Origin: an uncultured Gammaproteobacteria bacterium
GTDB lineage: Bacteria; Pseudomonadota; Gammaproteobacteria; Steroidobacterales; Steroidobacteraceae
Reading direction: 5' to 3'
Length of the DNA: 64,000 bases
Assembly (NCBI GenBank): GCA_963800375.1
Contig: CAWDAT010000003.1
Coordinates: 91,697 to 155,696, forward strand
This document shows positions 37,539-55,727 of the stretch, piece after piece. The translations under genes were made by a program, and so were the position numbers. Within the stretch, counting starts at the first letter, position 1. Each line of letters opens with the position of its first letter. Under the pieces are notes generated by a model, which made no database searches, was not told the origin of the DNA, and worked only from the letters and a program-made list of their open reading frames with translations.

Positions 37539-38901
37539 AGTCCTGAAGACCGAGAGCTTCCGCTCGGCCGCGCTGTTCGCGACCCTGTTCCTGATCTTGT
37601 CCTGGGTGCTGCTCGGCGTCGTGTACTGGATCGTGAATGACACGCAAAAATCGGCGCTGATCGGCGCCGTCGACGCGGACATCAACACCATCCGCAACGG
37701 CTATCGCGAAAAAGGACTGTCCGAGGCCATCGAGGTCGTGCAGCAGAGGCTGGGATCGGGCGATTACACGGGCGCGGATCTGCCCGGCGGCTACATTCTG
37801 ATCCACGATGCGGCGAGCGGCCGCCTCGTGGGCAACCTGCGGCCGATGACGCCGCAGCTGGGTTTGTTCAGCTTCCCTGCGCCGGCCGGGCGCAAGCATG
37901 AGGCCAAGGCGCCGGTACTCGGCCGCGGCGTGTACATTGCGCAGGGCGTCTATTTGTTCGTCGGCCGCGACACCGGTCAGATCGCGGTGACCCGGCTGCG
38001 CATTCTCACGGCGTTCGCCTGGGTCGAAGCGGCCGCCGTGGTGCTGGCCGGATTGGGCGGGATTTTTTTCAGCGTGCAATTCATGCGGCGGATCGATGCG
38101 ATCACGCGCACCTGTCAAGCGATCGTTGCCGGACGCTTCAGTGATCGCATTGCGCTGCGCGGCAGCGGCGATGAGTTGGACAGTCTTTCGGGCGCGATCA
38201 ACAACATGCTCGACCGGATTGAAGCCTTGCTCGACAATCTGCGGCAGGTGTCGAGCGATGTCGCGCATGACCTGCGCACACCGCTGACGCATCTGCGCAA
38301 CCGGCTGGAAGAAGCGCGCCAAGAATCGCTGACGATGGATGACTATGCGGCGGCCGTGACGCGCTGCATCGAAGATACCGATCATCTCCTGGTGATCTTC
38401 GCCGCGCTGCTGCGGATATCGCAAATAGAGTCGGGCTCTCGGCTGAGCGCATTTTCCGTCCTGTCGCTGTCCGATCTTCTGGAGAGGATCTGCGAAATGT
38501 ACCGTCCCGTCGCCGAGGACCACGATCAGGTGCTCCTGCAGGAACTGTCGCGGGATGTGCAGATTCGCGGCGACGGCGAGCTTCTGACGCAGATGTTCAG
38601 CAACTTGATCGAGAACGCGATTCGCCATGGCCCTTCGGGCACCCGGATCCTGATCCGCCTCGACGTGTCGGGCAATGTCGCAACCGCATGCGTCGAAGAC
38701 AATGGCCCGGGAATCCCGGCGGAGGAGCGCGGCAAGGTGTTTCGCCGCTTCTATCGGCTCACCGGCAGCCGATCGACCCCCGGAAATGGGCTCGGTTTGG
38801 CGCTGGTGGCGGCAATTGCCAATTTGCACAGCGCCAAAATCGCACTCGGCGACAATCACCCGGGGCTGCGGGTGCTGACCTCGTTCGAGTGCGTGCGCTG
38901 A
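37525..38901 (+). CDS. Sensor histidine kinase (2 TM, HAMP, HisKA, HATPase)
   Basis: TTG start overlaps the RR stop by 14 nt. H-box SSDVAHDLRTPLT. NLIENAIRHG, DNGPGIP, GNGLGLALV. Confidence 0.9.
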   Translation: MRPTRVLKTESFRSAALFATLFLILSWVLLGVVYWIVNDTQKSALIGAVDADINTIRNGYREKGLSEAIEVVQQRLGSGDYTGADLPGGYILIHDAASGRLVGNLRPMTPQLGLFSFPAPAGRKHEAKAPVLGRGVYIAQGVYLFVGRDTGQIAVTRLRILTAFAWVEAAAVVLAGLGGIFFSVQFMRRIDAITRTCQAIVAGRFSDRIALRGSGDELDSLSGAINNMLDRIEALLDNLRQVSSDVAHDLRTPLTHLRNRLEEARQESLTMDDYAAAVTRCIEDTDHLLVIFAALLRISQIESGSRLSAFSVLSLSDLLERICEMYRPVAEDHDQVLLQELSRDVQIRGDGELLTQMFSNLIENAIRHGPSGTRILIRLDVSGNVATACVEDNGPGIPAEERGKVFRRFYRLTGSRSTPGNGLGLALVAAIANLHSAKIALGDNHPGLRVLTSFECVR

Positions 38902-38951
38902 GGGCCGAACCGGCCACACCAAGCGACGGTGCCTGGTGTAGGATCGGCGCA

Positions 38952-39680
38952 ATGCGCGCACCGGTAATTGCTGTGGTACTTCTGGTGGCTTCGGCCTGCT
39001 CGGCGATGAAGCCGGCTCCGACCGGCGCCGCGGGGGCAGCCAAGCCGCAGGCGCCGGCCTCAACGCCGGCGGTGCCGCCCACGGCAACCGCGCCGCCGCC
39101 TTCAACACCCGCGGTGCCCGCGCCGCCTCCGCCGCCGTCGCCGTCGCCGGATTCATCGCCGGTGACGCCGCCGCCTGCGGCACCTGCAGCATCGGCTGCA
39201 CCGCCGCCGCCGAAATCCTCGATTGCCGCTCACCCCGTCAAACCCGGGGGCGCGGCAGCGGTAGCTCCGGGTGCTGCGGCCGGGACATCGAACAAAGCCG
39301 CGGCAACGCCGCCACCGCCACCGCCATCGCCACCGCCATCGCCGGCCCCAGCCCCAGCCCCAGCCCCGCCTGCCGCTGCCGCGCCGACGCTCAATCTGAC
39401 GGATCTGGAGCAGCGTCTACGCGACACGCGCGCCATCGGCTTGTTCACGAAGCTCTCGCTGAAGAATCAGGTTGACGACCTGCTCAAGGCTTTTCGGGAT
39501 CTCTATCGGAGCCCGAACAGACGGCAGCCCACGGAATTACGGCAACGGTTCGACGGGTTGCTGCTCAAGGTGCTCACGTTACTTCAGGATGGCGACCAAC
39601 CGCTCGCGACCGCCATCGCATCCTCGCGAGAGGCGATCTGGAACATACTCGCGGACCCGGAAAAATTTGCAAAGATCTAG
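38952..39680 (+). CDS. Lipoprotein with ~150-aa Pro/Ala-rich linker and a conserved-looking ~95-aa C-terminal helical domain (function unknown)
   Basis: MRAPVIAVVLLVASAC (lipobox-compatible). PPPSTPAVPAPPPPPSPSPD...PPPPPPSPPPSPAPAPAPAPP. C-terminus LEQRLRDTRAIGLFTKLSLKNQVDDLLKAFRDLY.... Confidence 0.6.
   Translation: MRAPVIAVVLLVASACSAMKPAPTGAAGAAKPQAPASTPAVPPTATAPPPSTPAVPAPPPPPSPSPDSSPVTPPPAAPAASAAPPPPKSSIAAHPVKPGGAAAVAPGAAAGTSNKAAATPPPPPPSPPPSPAPAPAPAPPAAAAPTLNLTDLEQRLRDTRAIGLFTKLSLKNQVDDLLKAFRDLYRSPNRRQPTELRQRFDGLLLKVLTLLQDGDQPLATAIASSREAIWNILADPEKFAKI
39309..39370 (+). repeat. Short tandem repeats (GCCACC/GCCATC units, then about 3.7 x CCCCAG) encoding PPPS and (PA)n
   Basis: Read directly: gccaccgccaccgccatcgccaccgccatcgcc ggccccagccccagccccagccccgcc. 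Confidence 0.7.
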
Positions 39681-40018: not shown

Positions 40019-41140
40019 ATGACCACCTTATTTGACCCGCTCAAGCTAGGCGACCTCGTCTTACCGAACCGCATCCTCATGGCTCCGCTCACGCGCAGCC
40101 GCGCCGGCGACAGCAGGATCGCCAATCCTCTGATGGCTGAGTATTACGCGCAGCGCGCCTCGGCAGGACTCATCGTATCGGAGGCGACGGTGGTGTCGCC
40201 GATGGCGATCGGCTATGCCGGCACGCCGGGCATCTGGTCGCCGGAACAGGTCGATGGGTGGCGTCTCACCACTCGGGCGGTGCATCAGGCCGGCGGGCGG
40301 ATCTTTCTGCAGCTGTGGCATGTGGGCCGGATCTCCGATCCGCGTTTTTTGAACGGTGCTCTGCCGGTGGCTCCGAGTGCGGTCGCCGCCAAAGGCAATG
40401 TCAGTCTGGTCCGTCCCGCGACCCCTTTCGTCACGCCTCGTGCTCTCGCACGGCAGGAGATTCCGGGCATCGTCGAGGCATTTCGCAGGGGCGCCGAAAA
40501 CGCGCAGCTCGCCGGTTTCGACGGCGTCGAATTGCACGGCGCCAACGGCTATCTGCTGGATCAGTTTCTTCAGGATGGCAGCAACCTGCGCGGCGACGAC
40601 TATGGCGGTCCGATCGAAAACCGCGCCCGGCTGATGTTGGAAGCGGTCGATGCGGCAATCTCAGTATGGGGCCCCGGACGGGTCGGCGTGCATTTGGCGC
40701 CGCGCGGCGATGCACATTCGATGGGGGATTCAGATCTGCCGCGCACCTTCGACCATGTCGCCCGCCGTCTCGGCGAGCGCAAGATCGCCTTTATCTGCGT
40801 CCGCGAATATCTGGGCCCCGACCGCCTGGGTCCACGCCTCAAGGCGGCGTTCGGCGGCGTCTACATCGCCAACGAGAAATTCTCCTACGAGAGCGCGGAG
40901 CAGACGATCGAATCCGGCGATGCCGACGCGGTGGCGTTCGGCAGGCTGTTCATCGCCAACCCGGATCTGCCGCAGCGCTTCGCGCTGCAGGCGCGGCTCA
41001 ATGAGCCGAAGGTGCCGGAGTTCTATTCCGGCGGCGCGCAGGGCTATACGGACTATCCGCGGCTATCGCCGGCCGCTCACAGTCCCGACTTGAACGACAG
41101 CCAGGCACGGGTAAATGCCCGGGTTTCGTCGGGAGTGTAG
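40019..41140 (+). CDS. Old Yellow Enzyme family NADH:flavin oxidoreductase (NemA-like)
   Basis: LFDPLKLGDLVLPNRILMAPLTRSRA...AGLIVSEAT...GRIFLQLWHVGR...GFDGVELHGANGYLLDQFL. The C-terminus runs about 30 aa past the usual ...GYTDYP end. Confidence 0.9.
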   Translation: MTTLFDPLKLGDLVLPNRILMAPLTRSRAGDSRIANPLMAEYYAQRASAGLIVSEATVVSPMAIGYAGTPGIWSPEQVDGWRLTTRAVHQAGGRIFLQLWHVGRISDPRFLNGALPVAPSAVAAKGNVSLVRPATPFVTPRALARQEIPGIVEAFRRGAENAQLAGFDGVELHGANGYLLDQFLQDGSNLRGDDYGGPIENRARLMLEAVDAAISVWGPGRVGVHLAPRGDAHSMGDSDLPRTFDHVARRLGERKIAFICVREYLGPDRLGPRLKAAFGGVYIANEKFSYESAEQTIESGDADAVAFGRLFIANPDLPQRFALQARLNEPKVPEFYSGGAQGYTDYPRLSPAAHSPDLNDSQARVNARVSSGV

Positions 41141-42192
41141 ACTCTCTGCAGTTCGAAGCGATTGCGGATCGCCGGCGGCGGATAGATCAGGGTATTGCCA
41201 CGGACCGCGGGCTCGAGCAGCGGTACCGCTGCCGCGTTGGCCGTGGCGAAGCCGATGAATCGGGTGACCGAGGCGGAGATTTCGGGCCGCATCACGAAAT
41301 TGATGAAGGTCAGGGCGGCGGCGGGGTTGGGCGAGTCGGCCGGAATCACCAGGTTGTCGATGTAGAACGGCACCATCTCGCGGGCAAACGCGTATTCGAT
41401 TTTCGCCCTGCCGTGGGACTCGTTCACCATGCGGCGCGCGACCATGGCATCGCCCGAATAGCCGATGGCCAGGCACAGCTCGCCCTCGGCGAGCTGCTGA
41501 TAATAGCCCGCAGTGGCAATGCGCCGCACGAAGGGCTGGATTTCCGCAAGCTTTGCCATCACGGCATCGAGCTCCGCTTTGCCGGCCGAGAGGCGCGTCT
41601 GGCCCAGATAGCGCGACACCATGGGGAGTACATCGCCCCACGAATCCAGCATGCTGATTCCACAGCCGGCGAATTTTGCGGCGACATCCTTCTTGAAAAT
41701 CATGTCGAGACTGTCGAGCGGCGCATTCGGCATGATGGCTTTGATCTTGTCGCTGTTATAGATGAGACCGGTTGTGCCCCACATCCAGGGCACCGCATAT
41801 TGATTGCCCGGATCCACGGTCTTGAGCAGCTGCATGATTTGCGGATCGGCATTGCGGACGTTGGGAATGCTCGCCTGGTCGAGCTTCCTCCAAAAGCCCT
41901 TGGGAATTTCGCGAGCCAGCTCCGGTGCGGCATTCATGGTCACGATGTCGTAGTTCGAATGGCCGGCGGACAGGATGGTTTCGGCGGCTTCCGGAGAATC
42001 GAGCACGGCATAGTTGACGTGGATACCCGTCTCAGCTTGAAACCTCGAAATCACGGCGGGCGGAAAATATTCCGCCCACGCATAGATGTTCAGAACCTTC
42101 GCCCGGTCGGCGGCGGCGCAGGTCATTCCCAGCCCGAGTGCGAGACCGAGCGCCGCGACCTGAGCGGTTTTTCTTCCTGGAGCCATGAACAT
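41077..42192 (-). CDS. Polyamine (putrescine/spermidine) ABC substrate-binding protein, PotF/PotD-like, orphan
   Basis: Signal peptide, then KVLNIYAWAEYFPPAVISRFQAETGIHVNYAVLDSPE...YAVPWMWGTTGLIYN. No permease or ATPase gene is adjacent. Confidence 0.85.
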   Translation of the reverse strand: MFMAPGRKTAQVAALGLALGLGMTCAAADRAKVLNIYAWAEYFPPAVISRFQAETGIHVNYAVLDSPEAAETILSAGHSNYDIVTMNAAPELAREIPKGFWRKLDQASIPNVRNADPQIMQLLKTVDPGNQYAVPWMWGTTGLIYNSDKIKAIMPNAPLDSLDMIFKKDVAAKFAGCGISMLDSWGDVLPMVSRYLGQTRLSAGKAELDAVMAKLAEIQPFVRRIATAGYYQQLAEGELCLAIGYSGDAMVARRMVNESHGRAKIEYAFAREMVPFYIDNLVIPADSPNPAAALTFINFVMRPEISASVTRFIGFATANAAAVPLLEPAVRGNTLIYPPPAIRNRFELQRVYTPDETRAFTRAWLSFKSGL

Positions 42193-42310
42193 GTGGGTCT
42201 AGGATACGATTTGCCGCGGCGGGCAGTGCGCCTCATTGCAATTTTGTGTCAATCTTTTCCGCGCCGGGTTAGGCTCTCGCAAATACTCGTCTGGCGGTGG
42301 GAGACCAGGG

Positions 42311-45214
42311 ATGGCATCACGTTTCTTTGTAGTCGGCACGCTCACGGCTCTGACGGCGATGACGGCGATCGCGACTGTGGCAACCGTTGCAAAGGTGCGA
42401 CATCCGCACCTGCGTCCCGGCGCGATTCCCGGACATGCGCCATTGCACGCCTTCGGCAGCCGCGGCGCGCGGCATCTCGGCACGGCAGGCGCCAAATTCG
42501 ACGGCGCACTCGCGGATCTATCGCGCCACGCGACGCAGGCGCGCCCTGATCATGCCGTCGAGGATTTGCGCTCGATTGCTCCCGCAGTCAGGTTCAAGCA
42601 AGAGGCACAGGACCCGGCGCCGCTGGTGCTCATCGATGCCGTCACCCGCGGCGACCCGCAGCAATTGAAAGCGGCCCTGGTGGCCCTGGGATTGCAGCAC
42701 GCGTCCGTCTATTCGAACGATGTGGGCGGCTGGCTGCCGGTGGCGCAACTCGACGCCGCCACGGCCAGGGCCGAAGTTCATTCCATCCGCGCCGCCATGC
42801 CGCGCACGCGCAGCGGCGCCGTGACGTCGCAGGGCGATTTCGTGCAGCACAGCGACAGGGTGCGATCGGACAATGCGCTCACGGGCGCAGGCGTGACGGT
42901 GGGCATCCTGTCCGACAGCTATGACTGTTATTCGGTGTATGCGGCGAACCATGTCCCCGCCGGCGGCGCCACGGGCTACGCCAACAACGGATTTCTCGCC
43001 ACGGCCGCGGACGACGTGTCGACGGGGGATCTGCCGGCGGGCGTCAACGTGCTCGAGGAGGCGCAAGCCGGAAACGGCGGCTGCATGAATTACGGAGCGC
43101 CGACTCAACTGCCCCTGGGTGATGAAGGCCGCGCGATGCTGCAGATCGTCCACGATATCGCGCCCGGCGCGGGCCTCGCCTTCTACACGGCCTATAACAG
43201 CGAAGCGGATTTCGCCAACGGCATCGGCAAGCTGGCGGCCTCCGTCGCTTCCGGCGGAGCCGGCGCCAAGGTCATCGCCGACGATGTGGGTTATTTCGAT
43301 GAGCCCTTCTTTCAGGACGGCATCGTGGCGCAGGCGATCGATGCGGTGGAGGCGCAGGGGGTGGCGTATTTCTCCGCCGCAGGCAACGATGGCACGCTGG
43401 CGTACGAGAATCTCACGCCCAGTTTCAGCAGCGTGTCCACGCAGACTTTCAATACCGGAGAGCATCTGCTGAACTTCGATCCGTCGGGCGCGACGACGGC
43501 GACCTCTTTGCCGGTGACCATCGCGTCATTGGTTCCCGGTGAATTCGTCGCCATCGTGGTCGAGTGGGACCAGCCCTACGTGACGGGCGCGCCCAACAGC
43601 GGCGGTGCGACCAGTCAAATCGATGTGTGCGTCACCGGGGCCTCCAGCGCCGATGAGATCATCGATTACGGCGGCAACAAGGCAACTTGTTCGGGCGTGA
43701 ACGCTCTGGGTTCCGATTCCTACCAGGTCATGATCATCGGCAATCCCGCCAATGCCAGCGGCAATTCTGCCGCGGAAACCATCAATGTTTTCGTGGGCTT
43801 GGCGGGCGGCACCGTGCCCGGACGCATCAAGGTGGCGGTCGAGGATGACGGCGCGGGCAGTACCATCAACGCCTTCCCGAGCAACAGCGCCGGCGCCACC
43901 ATCCAGGGCCACCCCGGCGCCGCGGGCGCAGCCGCGGTGGGTGCTGTGTTCTATTTGGCCACACCGGCTTGCGGCAATGTTCTCGGACTCGAGTATTTCT
44001 CGTCTGAGGGCGGTTCACCCATCTTGTTCGATGCGAGCGGCAACCGGCTCGCCGAGCCGATCGTGCGCCAGAAGCCCGATTTCGTCGGTCCCAACGGCGG
44101 CAACGATACGTTCTTGGGCTTTGCTCTCACCAGCAGCCAGGCCGCGACCACCATTGCCTCATGTGCGGACAATCTCAGCTACCCGAACTTCTTTGGCACG
44201 TCGGCGGCAGCTCCGCACGCCGCCAGTATTGCTGCGTTGATGCTGCAGTCCAATCCAACGGCCGCGCCGGCGCAGATCTATCAAGCCTTGCGCAACGGCG
44301 CCCTGGGGCTCGGCAGCGCGTCGCCGAATTTCGATTCGGGTTTCGGCTTTATCCAAGCCGATACGGCGTTCATCGCACCGGTCATGTCGCTGGGCGCGAC
44401 CGCGGTGCCGATTGGCGGCTCGACGACGCTTACCTGGTCGACCATTGCCGCGGCGAGTTGCATGGCATCGGGTAGTTGGAATGGTCCGGTGGCAACCAAC
44501 GGTAGTCAGACCGCAACGATCACCAGCATGGGAACGAACACCTATTCGCTGACGTGCATGAACGCAGCGGGTGGCATTGCGACCAGCTCCGTGAATTTGA
44601 CCGACCAAGCGCCCCCGGCGCCGACCTTGACGCTAAGCACCCCGAGTGTCATCAATCTAGGCGAGTCGACCGTCATTTCCTGGACGTCCGCGAATGCCAC
44701 GAGCTGCATGGCCGCTGGAAGTTGGAGTGGGACCTTGGGCACCTACGGGAGTCTGACAGTGACTCCAACTGCCGGCGGCGCCTATAGCTATTCGCTAAGC
44801 TGTTCCAACGCGCAAGGAACTTCCGCGGCAAGTTCGGTGATGTTGACCGTTACCCCGCCTCCCGCGGCCCCCTCTCTCACCCTCTCAGAGAGTTCCATCG
44901 TCGTCGGCAGCTCGACGATGCTCACCTGGTCGTCGCTCAATGCAACGAGTTGCACGGCAACAGGCAGCTGGTCGGGATCGCGGCCAACCAGTGGGACTCA
45001 GACTGAAACGCCAACCGCAGTCGGTTCCGACACCTATATGTTGACCTGTACCAATGCCGCGGGGACATCACCGGTAACTTCGGCAGTGCTGACCGTCACG
45101 CCTCCCCCGTCGAAATCGGGCGGCGGCGGCCTTGACCTCCTGCTGCTGTCGGGGCTTGCCGCAATGGGCCTGGCGCGGATTCTCCGTTCACGTCGACGTG
45201 TTAATCTACCCGGC
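42311..45214 (+). CDS. Secreted subtilisin-like (S8) serine protease with three Ig-like repeats and a GlyGly-CTERM-like sorting tail; no in-frame stop
   Basis: Signal MASRFFVVGTLTALTAMTAIATVATVA. Asp region GVTVGILSDS, His region MLQIVHDIAPGA, Ser region FGTSAAAPHAASIAAL. Tail SGGGGLDLLLLSGLAAMGLARILRSRRR ends at 45199. Five sense codons (VNLPG) follow before the downstream gene's GTG. Confidence 0.8.
44378..45100 (+). repeat. Three tandem ~75-85-aa two-cysteine repeats within the protease
   Basis: LTWSTIAAASCMASGSWNGP...YSLTCMNAAG..SSVNLT; ISWTSANATSCMAAGSWSGT...YSLSCSNAQG..SSVMLTVT; LTWSSLNATSCTATGSWSGS...YMLTCTNAAG..SAVLTVT. Confidence 0.8.
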
Positions 45215-46240
45215 GTGAAATCCAGCGCTGCACTCGTCGTTTTCCTGGCATTCCTCGGCGCGGATTACGCGCGGGCCACGGTGTACACGCTCCCCAGCCC
45301 CGATGCCTCCGTGGTGGGCGACGATCAGACGGTCGACACGGTGTATGAAGATACGCTGTACGATCTCGCGGCAAAGTTCAGCCTGGGATCGGAGGAACTG
45401 ATCCGCGTCAATCCGAGCGTGGATCCGTGGCTGCCGGGCGCCGGCAAGAAACTCACGGTGCCGGGCCGGCATATTCTGCCGCCGGGGCCGCGCGAGGGCA
45501 TCGTCGTCAATCTGCCCGAACATCGGCTCTACTATTACCCGAAGCCGAAACGCGGCGGACCGATCGAGGTCATCACCTACCCGGTCAGCATCGGCAAGAT
45601 GGATTGGCGCACTCCACTGGGAGTCACCCATGTCATCTCGAAGCAGAAGGATCCAACATGGTTTCCGCCGGAATCCGTCCGCAAGGAGCATGCGGCGGCA
45701 GGTGATCCCTTGCCGCCGCGAGTACCGCCGGGGCCCAACAATCCGCTGGGAGCCTACGCCATGCGGTTGGCGGCGGGAAACGGCACTTATTTGATCCATG
45801 GCACGAACAATCCGATCGCCGTCGGACTGGCGGTGACGCACGGCTGCATACGCATGTATCCGGACGATGTCGCGGCCCTTTACCCGCTGATCCCCGTGGG
45901 CACATCGGTGCGCCTCATCAACGAACCGATCAAGGTGGCCTGGGTCGACGGCGAATTGCTTCTCGAAGCGCATCCGCCGGTCGATGCGCAGGGGCAGAGC
46001 TTCGAGCCCAATATCGATCAGTTCGCCGAAATGCTGCGCACGGCCGTGGGCGACACGACGGTTGCGATTCACTGGGACTATGCGCGCGAAGTGCTGCAGA
46101 AAGCAGATGGAGTGATCGCGACGGTGGGGCTCGAAGCCGAAAATCCCAATTCACCGCCCCCGCCCGATGCCACGCCGGCGCCCGTCGCGGATACACCGCC
46201 GGCCGATGCGCCGCCTGCGAGCGCGCCGCCCGAACGCTAG
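45215..46240 (+). CDS. L,D-transpeptidase (LysM plus YkuD, ErfK/YbiS/YcfS-like) with its own signal peptide, in frame with the protease
   Basis: GTG at 45215 gives (M)KSSAALVVFLAFLGADYARA|TVYTLP. LysM TLYDLAAKFSLGSEELIRVNP. YkuD active site HGTNNPIAVGLAVTHGCIRM. Pro-rich C-tail. Confidence 0.8.
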   Translation: MKSSAALVVFLAFLGADYARATVYTLPSPDASVVGDDQTVDTVYEDTLYDLAAKFSLGSEELIRVNPSVDPWLPGAGKKLTVPGRHILPPGPREGIVVNLPEHRLYYYPKPKRGGPIEVITYPVSIGKMDWRTPLGVTHVISKQKDPTWFPPESVRKEHAAAGDPLPPRVPPGPNNPLGAYAMRLAAGNGTYLIHGTNNPIAVGLAVTHGCIRMYPDDVAALYPLIPVGTSVRLINEPIKVAWVDGELLLEAHPPVDAQGQSFEPNIDQFAEMLRTAVGDTTVAIHWDYAREVLQKADGVIATVGLEAENPNSPPPPDATPAPVADTPPADAPPASAPPER

Positions 46241-46608
46241 GCGCCGCAGTGCGAATCGGCGTGCACGTCGACCGACCCGGCATTGGCGACCGCGGTATTC
46301 GCACGACCGCATTTGCGAAACATCGTATCGGTGCTGGTCGCAGTCCACGCTAAATTGGCTCTGCCGTCGGCATCCGCGCTCAGGAATACCGGCACCGAGG
46401 TGAAACCATTGATGCGGGCGTTGCTGAAAACGATTCGTTCCGGACGAGCGCTCATATCGTAAACCGTGACCAAGATGTCTTCGGTGCTGTCATTGATGAG
46501 CTTGACCTCGACGCCTTCGCCGCCGAGTGCGCTGCTCCCGACCAACAGCAACGCCCCGAAACTCAACATCAAGGCTGCCTTCAGGGCATGCAGAATCCGA
46601 GTGATCAT
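46237..46608 (-). CDS. Hypothetical secreted protein (123 aa)
   Basis: ATG (cat at 46606-46608) gives MITRILHALKAALMLSFGALLLVGSSALG as signal. Two C-terminal Cys. No recognisable family. Confidence 0.5.
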   Translation of the reverse strand: MITRILHALKAALMLSFGALLLVGSSALGGEGVEVKLINDSTEDILVTVYDMSARPERIVFSNARINGFTSVPVFLSADADGRANLAWTATSTDTMFRKCGRANTAVANAGSVDVHADSHCGA

Positions 46609-46737
46609 GGGGAAGACGCTACCCGCACCCGCGCGACGCGGCAGCCGGATGCTCCTGTATCTGCGTGTGAGTATGTGCCTACGCCGCGGGCGATGACGGG
46701 TATGGTTGCCGCAGTGCAGCAAGGGTGGGCCTTCGGC

Positions 46738-46953
46738 TCAGTCTGGTTTCCGGGAATGCGCGCGAGATTGCCAGGAAAATTGCGATCGGAAGCGCTGCCC
46801 TGATCCCTGATCGCAGAAAATAGCGCCCTGTTCGTGAAACACCGGCTCACCCTGGTGATGGCGATCCACCAACTCTTCGAGCACGCTCAGCAAACCGAAC
46901 ACTGGGGCCAATAGAAAAACCAACAGCAGCAAGACGCCGATGAGTAGGTACAT
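46738..46953 (-). CDS. Hypothetical small membrane protein (71 aa)
   Basis: GGAGGG lies 5 nt before the ATG (cat at 46951-46953). MYLLIGVLLLLVFLLAPVFGLLSVL forms a TM helix. The extent of the C-terminal part is uncertain. Confidence 0.35.
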   Translation of the reverse strand: MYLLIGVLLLLVFLLAPVFGLLSVLEELVDRHHQGEPVFHEQGAIFCDQGSGQRFRSQFSWQSRAHSRKPD

Positions 46954-54418: not shown

Positions 54419-55642
54419 CTAGATGATGCCCTTGGCGCGCAGCGCAGCGATCTCCCCGGCCGGCAGGTCGAGACGTTCGGCCAGCACTTCCTGCGTCTGC
54501 TCGCCCAAGAGCGGCGGAGCGGAACGGTAGGTCACCGGCGTCTCGGACAGGCGCAGAGGATTGGCGACCAGGGAGACTGCGCCCGCAACGGGGTGCGGCA
54601 AATTGATCTGCATGCCGCGGGCACGCACCTGCGGATCGGCGAACACTGAATCCAAGGTATTGATCGGTCCGGCGGGAACACCCACGGTTTCGAGCGCTGC
54701 GACCCAGTGGGCGGTGGGATGCGTCACGGTCGCCGCGCTCAACTTGTCGATCAATTCGCGGCGATTGGCCACGCGCATCTTGTTGGTGCGAAAATCCGGA
54801 TCCTCGGCGAGCGCCGCGAGACCGACGACGGCGCACAGTCGGGCGAACTGCGCGTCGTTGCCGACCGCAATCACCATGTAGCCATCGCTGGTCGGAAAGT
54901 CCTGATAGGGAACCAGGTTCGGATGGGCGTTGCCATGGCGCCGCGGCGCGCTGCCGCTGACCAGGTAGTTCATGGCCTGGTTCGCGAGGCAGGCCACCTG
55001 TACATCGAGCAGCCCAACGTCGATATGCTGGCCCGCGCCCGACCGGTCGCGGTGCGCCAGGGCCGCCAGCACGCCGATCGTCGCGTACAGTCCGGTCAGG
55101 ATGTCGGTGACGGCGACGCCGACTTTTTGCGGCCCGGCTCCCGGCTCGCCATCCTGGCGCCCCGTGATGCTCATCAACCCGCCCATGGCCTGCACCAACA
55201 GATCGTAGCCGGCGCGCGGTGCGTAGGGGCCGGTTTGACCGAACCCCGTGATGGAACAATAAATGAGGCGCGGATTGACGGCGCGCAGCGATGCATAGTC
55301 CAGACCGTAGGATTCGAGGCCGCCCACCTTGAAGTTTTCCAGCACCACATCCGACTTGCGGGCAAGTTCGCGGATGATGGCTTGGCCTTCGGGGGTGGTG
55401 AAGTCCACCGTAATGGATTTCTTGTTGCGATTGGCGCAGAGATAGTACGCCGCGTCGCCGCCGTCATTGCCTTGCGCATCGCGCAAAAAAGGCGGACCCC
55501 AACTGCGAGTATCGTCCCCCGCGCCCGGCCGTTCGACTTTGATGACTTCAGCGCCCAGATCCGCGAGAACTTGTCCCGCCCAAGGTCCGGCCAGGACCCG
55601 CGACAGATCGAGCACGGTGATATGCGAAAGAGCGCTGTTCAT
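54419..55642 (-). CDS. Family III CoA-transferase (CaiB/BaiF; likely glutarate-related given the gcdH neighbour)
   Basis: MNSALSHITVLDLSRVLAGPWAGQVLADLGAEVIKVERPGAGDDTR. Confidence 0.85.
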   Translation of the reverse strand: MNSALSHITVLDLSRVLAGPWAGQVLADLGAEVIKVERPGAGDDTRSWGPPFLRDAQGNDGGDAAYYLCANRNKKSITVDFTTPEGQAIIRELARKSDVVLENFKVGGLESYGLDYASLRAVNPRLIYCSITGFGQTGPYAPRAGYDLLVQAMGGLMSITGRQDGEPGAGPQKVGVAVTDILTGLYATIGVLAALAHRDRSGAGQHIDVGLLDVQVACLANQAMNYLVSGSAPRRHGNAHPNLVPYQDFPTSDGYMVIAVGNDAQFARLCAVVGLAALAEDPDFRTNKMRVANRRELIDKLSAATVTHPTAHWVAALETVGVPAGPINTLDSVFADPQVRARGMQINLPHPVAGAVSLVANPLRLSETPVTYRSAPPLLGEQTQEVLAERLDLPAGEIAALRAKGII

Positions 55643-55727
55643 CCGCACAAGTTAGCACGATCGAAAGGCCCACCGGCCCCCGAGTTTATGCGATGCTTCG
55701 CTCTTCCGAGAGGACAAAAGGCTGAAT

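Follow-up and report, generated by a model that had tools for sequence, protein, structure and literature searches.

We asked whether a single open reading frame (ORF) that runs through a secreted protease and an L,D-transpeptidase (Ldt) encodes an evolved fusion protein, or whether two separate genes have come to share one frame. The ORF lies in a 64,000-nt stretch of DNA from an uncultured gammaproteobacterium of the family Steroidobacteraceae (assembly GCA_963800375.1, contig CAWDAT010000003.1, positions 91,697 to 155,696), which we call the window. A preliminary description, made from the letters of this stretch, had offered three explanations for the ORF, namely loss of the protease stop codon, synthesis of the Ldt by internal initiation or re-initiation, and a real polyprotein in which the Ldt is placed behind a membrane-sorting signal. 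Our comparison with related loci points to two ordinary neighbour genes that were brought into one frame by a single extra base in the spacer in front of the Ldt gene (ldt). In this account, which we consider probable as a whole, ldt would have its own promoter and a leaderless mRNA, and the extra base would be a real mutation.

One base joins the two reading frames

The ORF is located on the + strand and has no stop codon from a TTG at 42236 to its terminator, a TAG at 46238-46240. It comprises 1334 aa, or 1309 aa in the ORF listing when counted from ATG 42311, which is preceded by a GGGAGA-like ribosome-binding site. The protease ends with the codons cgt tca cgt cga cgt (RSRRR, 45185-45199), after which come the linker codons gtt aat cta ccc ggc (45200-45214) and an in-frame GTG at 45215, continuing with aaa tcc. 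The ORF listing and a read-out of the sequence thus bear out the stop-less frame and the junction as first described, including the statement that no Shine-Dalgarno sequence precedes the internal start: the junction has none of the GGAG type before GTG 45215. A simple scan for sigma-70 promoters and terminators found neither between the protease and ldt. The elements on which the argument turns are these:

42311-45214, + strand: S8 subtilase-like protease part, 968 codons from the ATG (Pfam match, Ser motif and orthologues)
45119-45199, + strand: GlyGly-CTERM-like tail of the protease, with GGGG at 45119-45130, the helix LDLLLLSGLAAMGLARIL at 45131-45184 and RSRRR at 45185-45199
45199-45207, + strand: predicted extended -10 element of ldt, TGTTAATCT, with TG at 45199-45200 and the hexamer TAATCT at 45202-45207
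45208-45214, + strand: spacer ACCCGGC between the -10 element and the start codon, 7 nt (6 nt in the closest relatives)
45215-46240, + strand: gene for an LdtE-like YkuD L,D-transpeptidase, GTG to TAG, 341 aa
45216-45218, + strand: TGA, the ancestral protease stop, which forms GTGA with the Ldt start and in the window is not in frame with the protease

In the closest relative (loci L001, L002 and L089) the protease is 80% and the Ldt 92.6% identical to the window's, and the two genes overlap by 4 nt. The L001 junction reads cgt gtt aat cta gcg gcG TGA aat, so that the protease ends R-V-N-L-A-A-TGA and the Ldt starts with the GTG inside GTGA; the same arrangement (cta gcg gcG TGA) is found in L003, L004 and L006. 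The L001 Ldt aligns to the window Ldt from residue 1 at 45215, at the identity given above. The window has cgt gtt aat cta ccc ggc GTG Aaa instead, and in a multiple alignment one C of the window faces a gap of one column in L001, L003, L005 and L018. The extra base is one C of 45209-45211, where the window has ACCCGGC and the relatives have AGCGGC or AATGGC. This one additional spacer base shifts the TGA at 45216-45218 out of the protease frame, and the frames of the two genes merge. Stop loss, as proposed in the preliminary description, was hence right in outcome, because the stop has left the frame, but not in mechanism, which is one inserted base.

Two triplets that had been considered in this context, CGA at 45194-45196 as one transition away from TGA and an out-of-frame TAA at 45202-45204, are both seen in the window. 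We rejected the CGA as a mutated TGA, as relatives have Arg at this position (RSRR, RFRRR) and their proteases run past it, and we rejected the TAA as a former stop, as it makes up positions 1-3 of the -10 hexamer and is never the protease stop in relatives. Their usual protease stop is a TAA or TAG that begins on the last T of the hexamer; the equivalent positions of the window, 45207-45209, read TAC. The tail of the protease ends R-V-L-[I/T/G]-stop in most protease-bearing loci, encoded gTG CTA ATC TAa, and in a minority that includes the lineage of the window the frame across the promoter is shifted by one, with the TGA of GTGA as the next stop. The residues that follow the basic cluster thus appear to be dictated by the DNA of the predicted promoter. 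If tRNA-Pro slipped by +1 from CCC to CCG (45209-45212), the window protease would again end L-P-A-stop; such a slip is possible in principle, but we saw no support for it and regard it as unlikely.

The fusion has no counterpart in related loci

We fetched 164 related loci from Steroidobacteraceae-type metagenome-assembled genomes (MAGs) and soil metagenomes, giving 165 with the window, and 45 of the related loci carry a GGG-helix-RxRxR tail followed by ldt. Looking for a stop in orthologous loci had been suggested at the outset as a check, and this check found a stop codon between the tail and ldt in 45/45 and a fusion in 0/45. With the whole fused protein as query, the best 120 of 4469 homologues were all stand-alone S8 proteins of 806-995 aa with 63-80% identity, terminating where the tail of the window protease terminates. 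The tail plus Ldt as query gave, as the best 120 of 5676 homologues, stand-alone Ldts of 336-417 aa throughout. Recurrence, by which we would recognize an evolved fusion, was therefore seen in none of the 45 loci and in none of these 240 best homologues. Exact matches to the fused protein, with either start, and to two neighbour proteins gave no record in the sequence collection, and the exact DNA pattern of the junction was not found in metagenome contigs when spacers of 5-8 nt were allowed. Because a single extra base in the spacer accounts for the shared frame and the genes are separate in every relative compared, the fusion of protease and Ldt appears to be a singleton that arose incidentally and not an evolved architecture.

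A conserved promoter-like element precedes ldt

We compared the DNA upstream of ldt with the loci anchored on the Ldt coding region; the 165 loci represent 144 unique sequences. The pattern TGnTAnnnT stands ahead of an in-frame start in 158/165 loci, and among the 144 unique loci the spacer between motif and start measures 6 nt in 117 and 7 nt in 12, the window being one of the latter. These spacer lengths of 6-7 nt hold with or without an upstream protease. The motif of the window, TGTTAATCT, falls inside the last protease codons (R-V-N-L).

Conservation was assessed in the 128 unique loci with a 6- or 7-nt spacer, excluding the window. The T, G, T, A and final T of the motif are invariant in 128/128, and so is a C at -8 (hexamer position 5), though the search pattern did not demand it. 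C is present at -13 in 97/128 loci (the window itself has T) and at -16 in 121/128, and the block as a whole is followed by A/T and then A/G. The consensus across Steroidobacteraceae ldt genes reads C-R-T-G-c-T-A-n-n-C-T, located 6 nt (less often 7) before GTG or ATG, with GTG as the start codon in 109/128 loci and ATG in 19/128 (85% GTG). The motif is the sole conserved upstream block in the 88 unique loci that have a 6-nt spacer and lack an upstream protease tail. The nearest upstream long ORF lies on the opposite strand in 56/109 loci without the tail, by a rough estimate, and ldt therefore needs its own promoter there. As background, TGnTANNNT occurred at the same distance from 1/1139 internal start-like codons of the window.

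The fixed 6-nt distance seen here is the usual gap from a -10 element to the transcription start. The sequence TANNNT about 10 bp before a start codon is an accepted signature of leaderless genes (PMC3160421), and TGNTANNNT is the extended -10 motif (PMC3898074). The ldt loci combine both features, TGnTAnnnT at a fixed 6-7 nt from the start and conserved in orthologues, and the window has it at 7 nt. We infer that the TGnTAnnCT block is an extended -10 promoter giving a leaderless or nearly leaderless ldt mRNA, because its invariant positions (TG, T-12, A-11 and T-7) are those of an extended -10 element. A leaderless mRNA would account for the lack of a visible Shine-Dalgarno sequence, and the Ldt would be made independently of the protease. 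Independent synthesis of the Ldt, as put forward in the preliminary description, is thereby supported, but in the form of a leaderless transcript from its own promoter and not of internal initiation or re-initiation.

Two other genes of the window have leaderless-type signatures. One is TGCTAACTT at 55642-55657 on the - strand, followed by 6 nt and the ATG of a 409-aa ORF (54419-55648). In the divergent SBP gene (41077-42192, - strand), which adjoins the protease gene, 8 nt separate TATCCT from the ATG. The organism may make wider use of leaderless-type starts.

Alternative explanations

The conserved block could be a regulator site or an RNA element instead of a promoter, with translation of the Ldt dependent on the upstream transcript, through termination-reinitiation coupling at GTGA in the relatives and through internal initiation or read-through in the window. 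Stop and start codons overlap or are adjacent in many loci, as such coupling would have it, and a number of observations weigh against our own account. A sigma-70 scan needing both hexamers gave no promoter in 41900-46900 and no -35 element is evident, while 109 of the 128 predicted leaderless starts are GTG; leaderless translation is reported to need ATG in E. coli, where a GTG start on a leaderless mRNA is inefficient, and mycobacteria also use GTG (PMC3898074). Both the promoter and the leaderless mRNA are deduced solely by comparing sequences, and the membrane topology and signal peptidase cut proposed below for a fusion protein are based only on hydropathy and charge. The extra base is part of a CCC run, a typical place for indel errors, and protein-based scans of genome and metagenome contigs yielded no contig of the same species, the best being that of L001/L089. 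Against the non-promoter alternative, the same block is present at the same spacing in about 100 unique loci without an upstream protease, many of the protease-less loci have a divergent nearest upstream long ORF, and the invariant positions match an extended -10 element. The junction region has no Rfam match, and neither tRNA genes nor Rfam families at the gathering threshold were found in the whole window (1-64000). We also rejected the block as a Shine-Dalgarno sequence: the G positions, and with them those required for a Shine-Dalgarno-like AGG, vary, whereas T, A, C and T are invariant. A role of the block other than as a promoter of ldt is hence very unlikely in our view.

The extra C could also be a sequencing or assembly error, in which case the true genome would have a 6-nt spacer and a protease ending R-V-N-L-P-A-TGA over the GTG of ldt, without any fusion. 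The fusion is unique when set against the 45 related loci and the 240 best homologues, the insertion is in a short C homopolymer, and deleting one C gives exactly the GTGA arrangement of the closest relative. However, we saw no frameshift among the neighbour genes compared in the roughly 15 kb surrounding the fusion: with the exception of one partial and one unmatched gene of L001, those of L001 and L003 aligned over their full length, each in a single frame. The window also differs from L001 by a substitution plus an insertion (AGCGGC to ACCCGGC) and not by a simple lengthening of the homopolymer, and spacers of 7 nt are natural in 11/143 other unique loci (about 8%), which by our reckoning is far commoner than the error rate expected at these 7 bases. 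For these three reasons we judge a real mutation to be more likely than an assembly error, and rate the former as likely and the latter as rather unlikely; the fusion would be incidental either way. Finally, the fusion could be a real and selected polyprotein in which the Ldt is the C-terminal part of a GlyGly-CTERM cargo and is freed by rhombosortase, by signal peptidase or by both. The frame is open, both halves look intact, and a hairpin with a cleavable signal sequence is a plausible topology for the junction. Yet no relative has the fusion, the junction consists of merely five codons of promoter DNA that is common to unfused relatives, the Ldt retains a conserved promoter-like element, a start codon and a signal peptide of its own, and described GlyGly-CTERM tails have 0-5 residues behind them (PMC3237569). 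The polyprotein proposed in the preliminary description thus finds no support in the loci and homologues compared, and we consider it exceedingly improbable.

Some differences between the window and L001 were noted in the surrounding genes. Synteny with L001 breaks at about 38900-39400 of the window (L001 2119-3647). Only the last 96 residues of a 250-aa gene product of L001 match the window, and an HTH_20 regulator of L001 (3282-3647) has no counterpart there.

The protease and its sorting tail

The first half of the ORF has the following features in addition to the tail listed above:

42323-42391, + strand: N-terminal hydrophobic signal region
about 43154-44347, + strand: Pfam S8 match
44195-44218, + strand: Ser motif GTSAAAPH (aligned to PDB 1r6v)
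44384-44602, 44627-44851 and 44876-45097, + strand: three tandem immunoglobulin (Ig)-like repeats of about 75 aa (pairwise comparison)

The match to Peptidase_S8 (PF00082) scores 38.2 bits against a gathering cutoff of 21.8 and spans model positions 76-288. GTSAAAPH pairs with GTSMAAPH of PDB 1r6v, and the matches to solved subtilases in the PDB are confined to the Ser region. Both the S8 assignment, with the Ser motif of an Asp/His/Ser triad, and the three repeats had been read from the sequence in the preliminary description; the assignment, the Ser motif and the repeats hold, and the repeats are identical at 35-42 of 75 positions in pairwise comparison. No Pfam family matches them at threshold (Big_9, E = 0.31). 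The lengths of the orthologues cluster at about 810, 895 and 970 aa, consistent with one, two and three copies of the repeat of about 75 aa, and the number of Ig-like repeats would therefore differ within the protease family.

The tail consists of SGGGG without Cys, the helix LDLLLLSGLAAMGLARIL with a mean Kyte-Doolittle hydropathy of 1.81, and the basic RSRRR. It thereby has all three parts of a GlyGly-CTERM signal (TIGR03501; Haft & Varghese 2011, PMC3237569). Such tails have 0-5 residues behind them (PMC3237569) and are found at the extreme C terminus, a location that the window tail does not have, with 346 in-frame residues after RSRRR. Most of the 45 related two-gene loci do have it, typically with 3-6 residues after the tail and in a few cases up to about 26. 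The curated cutoff of TIGR03501 is 15.5 bits. The window tail gave no match to this model at E <= 10 and reaches no curated C-terminal sorting model; its only match among these is MYXO-CTERM, with 8.8-16 bits and a cutoff of 20. The tail of the closest relative (P0001) scores 14.0 bits on TIGR03501, six orthologue tails pass the cutoff with 15.6-20.4 bits, and 22/40 tails of the family match at E <= 10. Because orthologue tails pass TIGR03501, the protease family counts as GlyGly-CTERM by the curation rule of Haft & Varghese (PMC3237569), and this supports a GlyGly-CTERM-like nature of the tail at the family level. The GlyGly-CTERM reading given in the preliminary description can be kept for the family, while the window's own tail remains below threshold.

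We listed the ORFs with multiple transmembrane segments in the 64-kb window, scanned candidates with Pfam and found no rhombosortase or rhomboid-like ORF within it. These ORFs resemble membrane proteins of the transporter or oxidase type and not a rhomboid of about 200 aa with six helices, and the candidates scanned match the TMEM175, AI-2E transporter, VTT/rhodanese and cytochrome c families.

The number of residues after the basic cluster ranges from 2 to about 26 in orthologue tails, and C-terminal extensions behind the sorting tail therefore seem to be tolerated. The position of the protease stop drifts around the ldt promoter in nature: the usual stop has been lost from P0016 (994 aa) and P0048 (995 aa), which continue for about 11 and about 19 further codons, respectively.

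The L,D-transpeptidase

Within the second half of the ORF we assigned the following features:

45215-45277, + strand: Ldt signal peptide, with the predicted cut after ARA
about 45347-45463, + strand: LysM-like stretch (sub-threshold Pfam)
about 45497-45913, + strand: YkuD domain (Pfam)
45836-45856, + strand: Ldt active-site motif THGCIRM
about 46150-46237, + strand: Pro-rich tail of the Ldt

The signal peptide noted at the outset is present as VKSSAALVVFLAFLGADYARA|TV, and the computed mass of the mature Ldt is about 34.3 kDa. The YkuD domain (PF03734) scores 86-89 bits (89.1 for the Ldt) with a gathering score of 23.4, and the His/Cys motif of the active site is there. LysM (PF01476) matches Ldt residues 45-83 with 16.1 bits (E = 0.011), below its gathering score of 20.9. 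Of the LysM-YkuD architecture described initially, YkuD is thus secure, but LysM is sub-threshold and a LysM-like stretch is plausible. The best NCBIfam model for the second half is LdtE (NF047955) with 217.7 bits, short of the equivalog cutoff of 480; by this comparison the protein would be LdtE-like but not assignable as LdtE. The end of the Ldt is of low complexity and rich in Pro and Ala (PNSPPPPDATPAPVADTPPADAPPASAPPER, 46150-46237), and it has no alignment to relatives past residue 312.

Predicted fate of a fusion protein

We propose the following course of events. Gene 1 would encode an S8 subtilase exported by Sec, with three Ig-like repeats and a membrane-sorting tail of the GlyGly-CTERM type, and gene 2 an LdtE-like YkuD L,D-transpeptidase with its own signal peptide. 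Transcription of ldt would start at or beside the start codon and yield a leaderless mRNA, and the last codons of the protease would be written across this promoter, with the stop at the last T of the hexamer or at GTGA. A spacer of 7 nt is within the natural range of the predicted promoter and, in the GTGA arrangement, pushes the TGA out of frame. The Ldt would still be produced from its own leaderless transcript as a 341-aa precursor with a mature form of about 34 kDa, and translation of the longer protease transcript would yield a 133-kDa fusion protein.

In such a fusion the tail helix (hydropathy 1.81) may cross the membrane from outside to inside as a stop-transfer sequence, followed by the cytoplasmic loop RSRRRVNLPGVK and the Ldt signal sequence from inside to outside, forming a hairpin. 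The signal sequence (hydropathy of the h-region 2.19) would restart export, and a cut by signal peptidase I after ARA would release the normal mature Ldt. The protease would be left with a longer tail, perhaps still removed by the sorting protease. The outcome would be the same two mature enzymes and a small membrane hairpin. That the extra base is real and that a translated 133-kDa fusion inserts as a hairpin and is resolved into two working enzymes by signal peptidase, possibly with a rhombosortase-type enzyme, is a tentative and somewhat doubtful scenario.

Relation to known systems

The protease resembles GlyGly-CTERM/rhombosortase cargo such as VesB of Vibrio cholerae (PMC3237569, PMC6219818, PMC13393428) in being a secreted serine protease with a signal peptide and in having a Gly-rich motif without Cys, a hydrophobic helix and a basic cluster, with orthologue tails that pass TIGR03501. 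It differs in being an S8 subtilase and not trypsin-like, in a tail that scores below every curated cutoff and in the 346 in-frame residues after it, compared with 0-5, and, unlike rhombosortase systems, it has no rhombosortase gene within the 64-kb window. E. coli LdtE (YnhG) is a YkuD L,D-transpeptidase that is induced by RpoS in stationary phase (PMC6428754). The window Ldt shares with it the best NCBIfam model, YkuD with the HGC motif, an N-terminal signal peptide and a LysM-like stretch, but its 217.7 bits are far below the equivalog cutoff, and it may act either in forming 3-3 cross-links or in attaching proteins. The sigma-S -10 consensus of Weber 2005, as quoted in PMC5650638, is KCTAYRCTTAA, and the -10 block of ldt, G-C-T-A-n-n-C-T-a-a, fits the quoted consensus at K, C, T, A, C and T, with a T at -13 in the window. 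We take dependence of ldt on RpoS/sigma-S as a lead only.

The ldt start is similar to leaderless genes of Mycobacterium, Deinococcus-Thermus and Actinobacteria (PMC3160421, PMC3898074, PMC12340547), with TANNNT and an upstream TGn at a fixed 6-7 nt from the start, no space for a Shine-Dalgarno sequence and a purine as the first base of the start codon. In contrast to those groups, the host belongs to a gammaproteobacterial family, in which this arrangement is less familiar; 85% GTG starts are unusual for a gammaproteobacterium, and about a quarter of the loci have the predicted promoter inside the 3' end of another coding sequence. The 4-nt GTGA overlap of the closest relatives, in which an adjacent 1-nt indel merges the frames, is like other gene pairs that overlap by ATGA or GTGA and are fused by small indels. 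Unlike ordinary indel fusions, this one has a cleavable signal peptide directly behind a stop-transfer-like sorting helix, and its products could still separate after translation.

Where two genes overlap by GTGA, a change of one base is enough to fuse them in frame, and such a fusion is not a new protein architecture; an annotation pipeline would name a 1309-aa "protease/transpeptidase" here, which would be misleading. We regard the conserved, predicted promoter of ldt as the more useful result. A strictly spaced, sigma-S-like extended -10 element in many Steroidobacteraceae MAGs predicts leaderless and possibly stationary-phase expression of ldt, and the DNA of this predicted promoter often also encodes the end of a GlyGly-CTERM protease, with its last codons and stop. 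Should the fusion be real, the strain would offer a natural test of sorting by a GlyGly-CTERM signal that is away from the C terminus and carries a long extension.

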